Shown piece after piece: positions 2,651-43,889 of a stretch of DNA of 64,000 nt. Position 1 is the stretch's first letter; each line of letters opens with the position of its first letter. The notes below the pieces were generated by a model. That model was not told the origin of the DNA. It worked only from the letters and a program-made list of their open reading frames with translations, and ran no database searches. Source of the stretch: an uncultured Verrucomicrobiae bacterium (GTDB taxonomy: Bacteria; Chlamydiota; Chlamydiia; Chlamydiales; Rhabdochlamydiaceae); assembly GCA_963718565.1 (NCBI GenBank), contig OY970364.1, forward strand, positions 1,248,001 through 1,312,000, in the 5' to 3' direction. Both the position numbers and the translations under genes were made by a program.

Positions 2651-2675
2651 CTTAATTTATACGGCGCGCCGTATA

Positions 2676-2847
2676 TATACTGCGCCCGTTTAGGTTTTGC
2701 GAATTTTGACAGGCTGCGACTTTGCCAAATCGATCCTTCTCGCTCGCCTTGCTATTCAGCAATGGTCTCGCTCGTTCGGCCGCTTCGCTTCGATTTTGCT
2801 TCGTCTCGCAGAGTCGAAATTCGCAAAACCTAAGCGGGCGCAGTATA
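2676..2847. repeat. Palindromic element family A (172 bp, MITE/RPE-like)
   Basis: 35-bp terminal inverted repeats tatactgcgcccg...cgggcgcagtata with 2 mismatches; internal motifs shared with 42331-42576. Confidence 0.9.
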
Positions 2848-41793: not shown

Positions 41794-42002
41794 CTCGAAT
41801 CTGGTCTTCCAGAGTCTCGATAGTTTCCCAAATCTGACGCATCTGCGAAGAAATCCCATGCGCATCTAAGCTGTGCGCCGGAGAAGAAAGCGAGGCGATC
41901 GCAAAATTGGATAGTAGCATCCCGATGTCAAAGAAAATCGGGGCATAAATGGCAAATTCGGTGTCGAAGTAACGTCTGTATTATTTAAATTTTCAATTAG
42001 CA

Positions 42003-42098
42003 TTATTCAAGTTGTGCTGCTTCGGGCGCCGCTTCGCTGGTTTAAACTCTAGGCGCCAGCTTTGCCAAAATCCCAATTCTTCATGTTGTTTCGGTATA
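42003..42098 (-). repeat. Family B half copy supplying the 3' end of the PTP gene
   Basis: Reverse complement closely matches 30940-31034; encodes YTETT-stop. Confidence 0.85.
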
Positions 42099-43889
42099 GG
42101 TCGAATCAGGCGCTAATTTCGCCAATAGACGCAATGTGCGATAGCAAAAGAGGTATTGGTCCCGCGATTGCATCATGCTGTTGCACCGCCCCTCTTCTGG
42201 AGAACGTTGGCGTTGAAGACACCGCTTAACATCGACCTTTCCGGTAGGAAGATATTCAAACTGATCGATGAGCGTGATCAAGGCGCTCGTCCGCCCTACA
42301 CCCGCATGGCAATGCACGACGATGGGAGATATACTGCACTCGGCCTGAAACTTTGAATTTTGACTGGCTGCGACTTTGTCAAATCGATCCTCCCTTCGGG
42401 CTGGTTCATTTTCGTTCACCTGCTTTGCACTACGAAAGTCCACCGGACTTTCTCGTGTCTCCGCAGTCTCCTCACCCTGCCTGCTTGGGGCAGGGCTTCG
42501 TCGGTCGGAACGCTCTGCTTCGATTTGACTTTGTCTCGCTGAGTCAAAATTCAAAGTTTCAGGCCGAGTGCAGTATGCTGTATTCTCAGTGCGAAGCCCA
42601 TGGACTGTTTTTACGAGGTAAGCCGCCGCACGCTCATTGCCTGGTGAGAAATCACGCCAATTTTGATATTGGAAATGATTCACAATGCGCGCCTCTTTAC
42701 CCTCTTGCCAGATTCTCACTTTTCGATGAATAACGGCATGAGGTTCTTCTTCATGGGGGGCTTGACGCCAGCTAGGATCGGTTTTGAAAAAGGGCTTCTC
42801 GATTAATTCGAGATGGATTTTTCCATAGTTTTTTTTGTCCGATAATGAGAAAGGAAAATAGATATCATCGCCTGGATCAGTAAGACGATTCAGCATAATC
42901 ACAATCGATGCATTTTGCTCGAGGACCATCGACCAAAAATCTTCAGTAGTATGCGGCATAGGAGATTGTGTCCCAATGAACTTTTTGCCTAAGACAAAAC
43001 TCGCATTAATATAGCGGCCCGAATTCAATGGCACCAAGGTAGCATCGTAAGGAAAATTATTAAATGGGAAACGCGTAAACGGGTGATTGTCTTCACGCCG
43101 AGTAGTTTGCGAGTGAAGTTTGTAAACATCCTCATTGATCTGCGCATTCAAATCATTAATCTCAGAAAAAACATCTGCATCCGACTTGTCGAGTGCCACC
43201 AATGTTTTTTTCATTTCTTCCTTAGGAAGCAATTGAGGATAATTTTTTAGAAGCGAAATCCCTTCCATCCCTCCGTATCCTTTGCGGACCGACATCAAAA
43301 GATGGCCTAAACGATTGCACCCAGTTCCATCACTATCATCTGTCCAAAAAGGGTCCATTCTTTTTAAAGGGGTATGGAAAGAAAGGTAGGAGTCCATTGT
43401 CAAAAGAAGAAGGCGTTGAAGAGTGTAATTTTGACCAAACTTAGCGCGCAGAACATCAAGCATGACTATTTCTCGCTTCTCATACCATTCCCGGTTTTTT
43501 TCGAGATGCTTTTCCGCTGAAAAAGCCAAAGCTTTTTTTGCATCCAGAGTTTTGATCTGATTCGTCAGCTCACCATTTGGGGCAAACTTTTGAGCTTCGT
43601 AGACGGTTGTTGCGCATGTGTAATAGGTTCCTCCAAATTCAAAAGGAGCTGGACAGTCATTATCGAGAAAAGCGAAATAGGGATCGCAATTCTGGCCAAA
43701 CAAAATACAGCGGCCTCTAAGAGCTTTTGCAATCGTCTGTTCGAGATTTGTGGGCTGATACGGAGGTGGCGCACTTAAGACGTTTTCTTCAACTTTAGGC
43801 TCTTCTTTGTGCTCTTCCAAAATTTGGACTTCCAATGTTTTTGGCCCTGTATAAATGATGGAAGAGTCTACGATTCCTTTTACTGTCAT
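42081..43889 (-). CDS. NADAR (YbiA-like) domain fused to a classical protein tyrosine phosphatase
   Basis: NADAR: AQKF..W...VM..VLRAKFGQN..L..LL..T...DPFW...G.NRLGHLLM.VR; PTP: YINAS, TQSP..T.EDFW.MV, WRD, HCHAGVGRT, QSRDQY. Confidence 0.85.
   Translation of the reverse strand: MTVKGIVDSSIIYTGPKTLEVQILEEHKEEPKVEENVLSAPPPYQPTNLEQTIAKALRGRCILFGQNCDPYFAFLDNDCPAPFEFGGTYYTCATTVYEAQKFAPNGELTNQIKTLDAKKALAFSAEKHLEKNREWYEKREIVMLDVLRAKFGQNYTLQRLLLLTMDSYLSFHTPLKRMDPFWTDDSDGTGCNRLGHLLMSVRKGYGGMEGISLLKNYPQLLPKEEMKKTLVALDKSDADVFSEINDLNAQINEDVYKLHSQTTRREDNHPFTRFPFNNFPYDATLVPLNSGRYINASFVLGKKFIGTQSPMPHTTEDFWSMVLEQNASIVIMLNRLTDPGDDIYFPFSLSDKKNYGKIHLELIEKPFFKTDPSWRQAPHEEEPHAVIHRKVRIWQEGKEARIVNHFQYQNWRDFSPGNERAAAYLVKTVHGLRTENTAYCTRPETLNFDSARQSQIEAERSDRRSPAPSRQGEETAETRESPVDFRSAKQVNENEPARREDRFDKVAASQNSKFQAECSISPIVVHCHAGVGRTSALITLIDQFEYLPTGKVDVKRCLQRQRSPEEGRCNSMMQSRDQYLFCYRTLRLLAKLAPDSTYTETT
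42331..42576. repeat. Palindromic element family A (246 bp), in frame within the PTP domain
   Basis: Perfect 35-bp IR atactgcactcggcctgaaactttgaattttgact at 42331-42365 and 42542-42576. Confidence 0.93.

Follow-up and report, generated by a model that had tools for sequence, protein, structure and literature searches.

We predict that a tyrosine phosphatase gene of an uncultured chlamydial bacterium carries a mobile palindromic repeat that entered its coding sequence without closing the reading frame. The window analyzed is a stretch of 64,000 nucleotides (positions 1,248,001 to 1,312,000 of contig OY970364.1, assembly GCA_963718565.1) assigned to the Rhabdochlamydiaceae, and the palindromic element occupies window positions 42331..42576, as located by repeat search and site alignments. 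Its 246 bp correspond to 82 codons (amino acids 439-520, YCTRPE...AECSI). [quoted passage not shown] According to this interpretation, a TA-flanked palindrome unable to move on its own would have entered the phosphatase gene in this lineage, and the gene would have stayed open because the net length is a multiple of three, the element has an open frame for a very hydrophilic peptide, and the site of landing is a surface loop just ahead of the strand with the catalytic cysteine. The element is then most likely transcribed and translated, so that 82 residues, disordered or helical for the most part, would project from an otherwise intact phosphatase fold.

The host gene (42081..43889, minus strand) is a single intact open reading frame (ORF) encoding a fusion of a NADAR domain and a classical protein-tyrosine phosphatase, 602 amino acids in length. 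Pfam searches with the host protein placed the NADAR domain at amino acids 77-203 (E 2.7e-14) and PF00102, the classical tyrosine phosphatase domain, at amino acids ~279-600 in two stretches that flank the insert (E 6.1e-38), and receptor-type tyrosine phosphatases in the PDB matched the protein with an E value of 4e-36. The catalytic roles of the C(X)5R P-loop, the aspartate of the acid loop (WPD-type) and the Q-loop are established for this enzyme family. Here, the P-loop HCHAGVGRT (amino acids 526-534; 42288..42314, minus strand) lies five codons downstream of the insert, and WRD, the counterpart of the WPD loop (amino acids 411-413; 42651..42659, minus strand), lies 25 codons upstream of it. 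The Q-loop motif QSRDQY is also present, and the motif residues H, C, R, W, D and Q are invariant in an alignment of nine orthologues. Thus, the host frame and the catalytic motifs are intact despite the insert, and the gene is predicted by profile, fold model and motifs alike to be a member of the classical protein-tyrosine phosphatases.

The original prediction described a perfect 35-bp inverted repeat bounding 82 in-frame codons between WRD and HCHAGVGRT, a description that proved correct in every particular. The left outer arm (42331..42365) and the right outer arm (42542..42576) are each 35 nt long and perfectly complementary, with imperfect extensions to 42387 on the left and from 42520 on the right. 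Taken with these extensions, the arms (42331-42387 and 42520-42576) form the only inverted repeat reported by the repeat search, with a length of 57 nt, 86% complementarity and a 132-nt spacer; pairing is perfect over the outer 35 nt and holds at 49 of the 57 positions overall. By the family consensus, which includes a TA at each end (TATAC...GTATA), the element spans 42330-42577 and has one tip base changed. It starts at the third base of codon 438 and ends at the second base of codon 520. Between the arms are a small hairpin (42434..42452), part of a ~57-77-nt module that also occurs in a 227-bp subfamily of the element and in a separate ~96-bp repeat family, and a second, G+C-rich hairpin with the sequence CCCTGCC...GGCAGGG (42475..42495). 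The predicted RNA fold of the element has an energy of -124.6 kcal/mol (z -11.5), and none of 200 shuffled sequences was as stable. No intrinsic terminator was found within the element on the coding strand, and its one promoter-like match is on the opposite strand and within chance expectation.

Orthologous genes reveal the site without the element. When the host protein was searched against 31 related genomes, nine congeners (G001-G006, G014, G015 and G018) had matches to residues ~26-436 and ~519-592 on abutting DNA, in open frames of 488-587 amino acids compared to 605 in the insert-bearing gene. In protein and DNA alignments of the site, the eight orthologues included all have a gap with clean edges, 82 residues or 246 nt long. 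With the insert removed, the window gene reads ...TENTA-SPIVVHCHAG and matches the orthologues residue for residue; the sequence ENTA-SPIVVHCHAGVGRT, which had been claimed to be a normal phosphatase sequence restored by excision, aligned to all eight without a gap. Orthologue length varies by plus or minus one residue at the insertion site, as expected of a loop. The insertion most likely postdates the split of this lineage from the sampled congeners.

A repeat present in many copies in the assembly of an uncultured organism might also have been misplaced into the gene by the assembler, an explanation that we consider extremely improbable. The phosphatase copy is unique in its genome, and the next best match found by BLAST is only 73% identical, so the copy is not a misplaced repeat taken from another locus. 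In addition, positions 42363-42676 are matched with no differences by a 314-nt short-read contig from a public soil run. The contig bridges the 42576/42577 junction; the run possibly comes from the source study and would then not be independent. The exact preservation of the frame also argues against an artefact.

The position of the insert in the protein was examined in an AlphaFold2 model of amino acids 237-602, which was built from an alignment of nine sequences and has a mean predicted local distance difference test score (pLDDT) of 69 and a predicted TM score of 0.70. The core of the model has pLDDT values of 70-90, compared to values mostly below 50 in the insert. In the numbering of the model, the WRD loop is succeeded by a helix at residues 180-204, the insert takes up residues 203-284 with two predicted helices, and a strand (287-291) leads into the P-loop. 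Classical phosphatases in the PDB align to model residues 39-201 and then from residue 284 (ISPIVVHCHAGVGRT) onward, and Foldseek matched the model to AtPTP1, PTPRB and PTP1B with TM scores of 0.65-0.71. As modeled, the insert lies in the loop between the post-WRD helix and the P-loop strand, and it is plausible that the phosphatase fold tolerates it. The inserted peptide has a grand average of hydropathy of -1.40, with 37% charged and 66% polar or charged residues, in contrast to the element's other open frame, which by eye is more hydrophobic. From the sequence, we infer that the insert is translated and that phosphatase activity is retained.

The phosphatase insert is one member of a dispersed family. 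When the 2,284,058-bp single-contig genome was searched with BLAST and with nhmmer in three rounds, 99 merged repeat loci were identified, including those of a second, unrelated-looking family. Forty-four copies are full length (93-248 bp) and bounded by TATAC(N)GCGC...GCGC(N)GTATA; they fall into subfamilies of 170-173, 227-230 and 241-248 bp, along with some shorter forms. These copies are small and numerous and have neither a long ORF of their own nor a transposase gene. The phosphatase copy is the sole member of its subfamily in this genome, being 71-73% identical to the 227-bp copies and ~27-29% diverged from the other copies, and the full-length copy closest to it, with 90.3% identity over 247 nt, is found in another species of the genus. 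The family is also modular: the 227-bp form consists of the 170-bp form plus a 57-nt hairpin module, and this module is found in the separate ~96-bp repeat family as well. The original prediction had pointed to a related intergenic element in the window at 2676..2847; it is real, a 172-bp copy of another subfamily that lies outside ORFs, has a net length that is not a multiple of three, and has 98.8% identical copies elsewhere.

Two further kinds of repeats were encountered in these searches. Abutting the 172-bp copy is an 18-bp palindrome, TATACGGCGCGCCGTATA (2658..2675), which consists of two element tips joined together. Short palindromes of this joined-tip type occur at 22 places in the genome, six of them identical copies of TATACGGCGCGCCGTATA, and could be minimal family members or footprints. 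The second repeat family has a core of ~96 bp that is open in four of six frames and encodes a peptide containing ...GNCKTPRRIKSRFWHLSPWRRLPS-APVRSFAHLLCTAKVPRTFSCLRS...; one in-frame copy is close to the N-terminus of an ABC ATPase of the oligopeptide type (790230-791441), between the first strand and the Walker A region, and further copies (556779, 590649, 1018979, 1182988 and 2058422) are inside or at the 5' ends of other long open frames.

Four copies in the genome are spanned by long open frames: in the phosphatase gene, in an FtsX-like permease (761 amino acids, element at amino acids 386-461), in a DUF455 protein (314 amino acids, element at amino acids 208-264) and in a 328-amino-acid protein of unassigned family, the last being a putative case of an internal insertion. 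A fifth copy is read through and forms the C-terminus of a TPS-domain protein, and two more are in frame at the 5' end of a downstream ORF, one upstream of TsaE and one at 611939. A single frame of the element is used in all in-gene copies, LYRAQEGFVNLDSARQ...NSQNLTERGI, of which the phosphatase version is YCTRPETLNFDSARQ...NSKFQAECSI. As in the phosphatase gene, the empty site is seen in relatives: the DUF455 insertion is missing in 13 congeners and the FtsX insertion in 14, with the gene halves abutting in each case.

According to a crude map, ORFs make up 84.6% of the genome, yet only eight of the 44 full-length copies lie within ORFs, one of these ORFs barely exceeding the element itself. 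This difference indicates that in-gene insertions have been strongly filtered and that the survivors are those that are open and a multiple of three in length. The net length of the in-gene copies (tip-to-tip length minus 2) is 168, 225 or 246 nt, all divisible by three, compared to a net length of 170 nt in the 172-bp subfamily, which has stops in all six frames and no copies in ORFs. Genes in this genome harbor only subfamilies with a net length divisible by three and an open frame. When the elements were excised in silico, long frames spanned only the four coding junctions, with borderline cases at gene ends (33/363 and 43/93 codons). When frames may be combined freely, both flanks are open on one strand at five of the 44 copies, three of which are among the coding cases and two of which are between separate, complete genes. 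The family scan thus found coding copies that are divisible by three, open and in the same frame. The concern raised with the original prediction that coding insertions elsewhere might be mostly disruptive was not borne out, with no gene-splitting copy among the 44.

Several individual copies illustrate the behavior of the subfamilies. The 170-bp copies (531486, 611939, 998667, 1144615 and 1416093) are open; genes read through three of the five, and a fourth shares its frame with a downstream ORF. Copies of 171 bp (26828, 119468 and 1409584) are nearly identical to the 170-bp form and differ from it by one base in length; they contain TGA stops, and none of the three is in a gene. Two copies considered as candidates for gene splitting, at 906957 and 2234083, were rejected, each being located between two separate, complete neighboring genes. 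At 905960-908048, a 169-bp element separates adjacent paralogous genes of unassigned family (340 and 330 amino acids), and the stop codon of the upstream gene is within the first 23 nt of the element.

These observations bear on the alternative that a recent insertion silenced or crippled the phosphatase, either because RNase III cuts the stem in the transcript or because the 82 additional residues disturb catalysis, and that the ORF has not yet decayed. The element forms a very stable hairpin, an RNase III gene is present in the genome, and it is possible that RNase III acting on the perfect 35-bp stem would lower the stability of the mRNA. The arms of the phosphatase copy are still identical at 35 of 36 positions, which is compatible with a young copy, and the insert is five residues from the catalytic strand. 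However, copies in the same frame leave intact reading frames in the FtsX-like, DUF455 and TPS-domain genes and in apparent menF-type and priA-like genes of relatives, and none of the 44 copies breaks a frame, a pattern that indicates filtering for tolerated insertions and not gene death. The catalytic motifs are also unchanged, and a copy that differs this much from the others in its genome, and by 10% from the one closest to it, does not have the look of a very recent arrival. We therefore regard silencing of the phosphatase as doubtful and tolerance of the insert as the better explanation.

A different possibility is that the element never reaches the protein because it is removed by RNA processing, protein splicing or programmed DNA excision. 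Exact excision would restore a normal phosphatase sequence, and the perfect stem would bring the two junctions together in RNA. On the other hand, an Rfam search of positions 42000-42900, introns included, gave no matches at E values up to 1. Inteins have a minimum size of about 130 amino acids, and an insert of 82 amino acids is far below it; the junctions, A/YCT...CSI/S, do not have the terminal His-Asn plus nucleophile pattern. Neither joints nor an insert-less allele were seen in contigs of four DNA runs, in which coverage was thin and the junction other than 42576/42577 had only 5 nt of its flank covered. If elements were removed before translation, the rule that in-gene copies are divisible by three, open and in the same frame would be pointless. 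Removal at the DNA or RNA level, which the original prediction had offered as an alternative, is thus unsupported, and we judge removal in any of these forms to be very improbable. The other reading offered in that prediction, in which a mobile repeat donates a peptide that a surface loop tolerates, is supported by the dispersed family, the insert-less orthologues, the same-frame copies, the lack of gene-disrupting copies and the folded core with a low-confidence insert.

The ends of the elements provide clues to how they move. Every full-length copy is flanked as TA-TAC...GTA-TA, and the in-gene copies are in frame only when the net gain is taken as the tip-to-tip length minus 2, as a TA duplication would give. 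Consistent with this, the reconstructed empty site of the DUF455 gene, AAA-T[TA]-AAA-CAG (K-L-K-Q), fits the K-L-K-K and K-F-K-S of its orthologues in length and position. This indirect evidence points to duplication of a TA target site upon insertion.

TA-flanked tips are also found on an insertion sequence (IS) of the IS630 family in the same genome. This IS is ~1125 bp in length, encodes the domains DDE_3, HTH_33 and HTH_23, and ends in TA-TACT...GTA-TA (e.g., 1322007-1323131). Its 12 full-length copies are at least 99.8% identical, suggesting that it was probably active recently, and two copies are inserted inside the TA tip of palindromic elements (353769 and 1532312). We consider it likely, judging from these shared features, that the palindromic family was mobilized in trans by the transposase of the resident IS630-family element. 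A search for an autonomous element by way of paired tips 260-5000 bp apart gave only candidates that were rejected, as they enclosed ordinary genes or were chance pairs. The genome is rich in IS elements for its 2.28 Mb, with multi-copy ORF families of 23, 20, 16, 13, 13, 12 and 11 members; by eye, the IS-like families include TnpB-like, IS607-type serine recombinase and IS3-type ORFs, and the Pfam check was confined to the IS630 family.

The two arms of the elements have changed together. We compared the 36-nt arms of nine subfamily representatives, leaving the relatedness of the copies uncontrolled, and found that the arms are identical to each other at 32-36 of 36 positions within each representative, whereas 21 of the 36 arm columns have at least two different symmetric (compensated) states across subfamilies. 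The phosphatase copy differs from the other representatives at 9-13 compensated positions and by 1-3 changes in one arm only. Compared with its 90% identical relative, it has three differences in the arm, and all three are compensated in the opposite arm. One interpretation of this covariation is that a hairpin is required in either the DNA or the RNA; alternatively, one arm may be copied from the other during propagation.

The palindrome could also be a selected device rather than a tolerated insertion, serving either as a shared RNA hairpin through which several genes, a eukaryote-like phosphatase among them, would come under joint post-transcriptional control of the RNase III type, or as a shared surface peptide for host-cell interaction or localization. 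This idea is raised by the covariation of the arms and by the presence of a hydrophilic module on many unrelated proteins in at least seven genera. We consider such a role rather unlikely and continue to favor a tolerated, non-autonomous insertion.

The family extends well beyond this genome. Of the 19 genomes of the genus, 15 had matches to a profile of the element peptide. The genomes other than the one studied here contained at least 24 full-length, stop-free peptide matches, of which at least 10 were in open frames of 300 amino acids or more. When 121 genomes were drawn from the family as a whole, 24 of them, belonging to 7 of 40 genera, had matches at E values up to 1e-6, including copies in open frames of 354-3318 amino acids. 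We inspected five loci in relatives, naming the genes by eye from their motifs. Internal copies were found in an isochorismate synthase-like (menF-type) enzyme and in a 1869-amino-acid open frame, and terminal copies were found at the C-terminus of a PP-loop ATPase and near the N-termini of a priA-like frame and of another protein. The copy in the priA-like frame, in congener G003 (515688-518834), holds a nested insertion that splits the profile match into 2-28 and 28-76.

A 24-nt core pattern also occurs in public genomes, where it matched 49 stretches. Rickettsia appears in none of their titles, with the qualification that an exact pattern is blind to distant kinship. The titles of these records name Chlamydiae, Rhabdochlamydiaceae, Candidatus Rhabdochlamydia, Parachlamydiales and Candidatus Acheromyda, and some metagenome-assembled genomes (MAGs) are titled Verrucomicrobia, Acidobacteria or simply "bacterium". 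These titles are in line with the Chlamydiota presumed in the original prediction.

Several points weigh against the interpretation of the insert as a tolerated, transposed element. With regard to the protein, the structural model was built on a shallow alignment of nine sequences with the modest mean pLDDT given above, and the insert is located at the end of the post-WRD helix, which couples to the acid loop, and five residues before the strand of the catalytic cysteine, where it may affect catalysis. With regard to expression, the perfect 35-bp stem in the mRNA, in a genome with an RNase III gene, could lead to cleavage of the transcript and poor expression of this allele. The nearest insert-less orthologue is only 78% identical and thus too distant to date the insertion. 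Among the other coding cases, the 328-amino-acid protein has no orthologue in congeners, and similarity to its paralogues is confined to the part upstream of the element. The proposed link to IS630 is weakened in that no transposase was found between family arms in this genome and in that the IS and the palindromic family share only the 6-nt tip TA-TACT and the TA geometry.

If our interpretation is correct, selfish DNA that sits within protein-coding genes, best known from Rickettsia, also shapes the proteins of environmental Chlamydia-like bacteria. The phosphatase is of particular interest because the insertion site adjoins the catalytic loop of a eukaryote-like enzyme, the arms of the element covary, and a candidate mobilizer is available for testing. 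For three genes or more, orthologues with and without the insert are available and constitute a natural experiment, in which the tolerance of an enzyme to an 82-residue loop could be assessed. Similarly, the TA geometry, together with a resident IS630 element, makes the mechanism of mobilization testable. For genome annotation, such elements would account for unusual additional segments, for extensions at the N- and C-termini, and for "orphan" peptides among the proteins of chlamydial MAGs.

We found no description of such elements in Chlamydiae in the main texts of the open-access literature and bioRxiv. The string "Chlamydi" occurs zero times in the main text of a 2024 MITE review, zero times in that of a 2024 MITE census, and three times in that of a survey of REP sequences, where all three occurrences only name the Planctomycetes-Verrucomicrobia-Chlamydiae (PVC) superphylum.

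In construction, the element resembles the Correia elements of Neisseria. Correia elements (CREE/NEMIS) are TA-flanked MITEs of the IS630/Tc1 type with long arms, tips of TA-TA(C/G), TA duplication and long RNA hairpins, and their hairpins are processed by RNase III. Like them, the family described here is short and without a transposase, and has long inverted arms, TA duplication and RNA hairpins. Unlike them, it is built as a modular palindrome with nested small hairpins and includes open subfamilies whose length is a multiple of three; in-frame coding is not a hallmark of Correia elements. A second comparison is with QMITE1 and QMITE2 of Coxiella burnetii, which, in the passages of PMC5896051 that describe them, overlap annotated genes and sometimes keep the frame of an ORF, either in its middle or at its 3' end. 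These are likewise MITEs of an intracellular bacterium whose in-frame copies add residues to proteins. The QMITE copies described there mainly affect hypothetical proteins or the ends of genes, whereas the phosphatase insert is inside a defined catalytic domain and its orthologues show the empty site. In-frame behavior is also shared with some copies of the enterobacterial ERIC sequences, according to the relevant passages of PMC10969869 and PMC5896051.

Judged by the sequences, the behavior of the family in genes appears to be that of the Rickettsia palindromic elements (RPEs), here in Chlamydiota. We know of no mobilizing mechanism for RPEs. As in that system, these are dispersed palindromes of ~100-250 bp in a lineage of the obligate-intracellular type, with many intergenic copies and a subset in frame, and the copies in genes all contribute one conserved hydrophilic peptide, at sites that the protein fold can accommodate. 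RPE-1 to RPE-10, as summarized from Ogata et al. 2000 in a passage of PMC10969869, are dispersed palindromes that are in some cases in frame in unrelated genes. The same source gives an in-gene fraction of nearly half for some RPE families, compared to 5-7 of 44 copies here. The family described here also differs in belonging to Chlamydiota and in having TA-flanked tips and a TA-duplication geometry that would point to transposition of the IS630 type. By analogy, then, the element in the phosphatase gene seems to work like an RPE and to be built like a TA-flanked MITE, a likeness to RPEs that concerns behavior.

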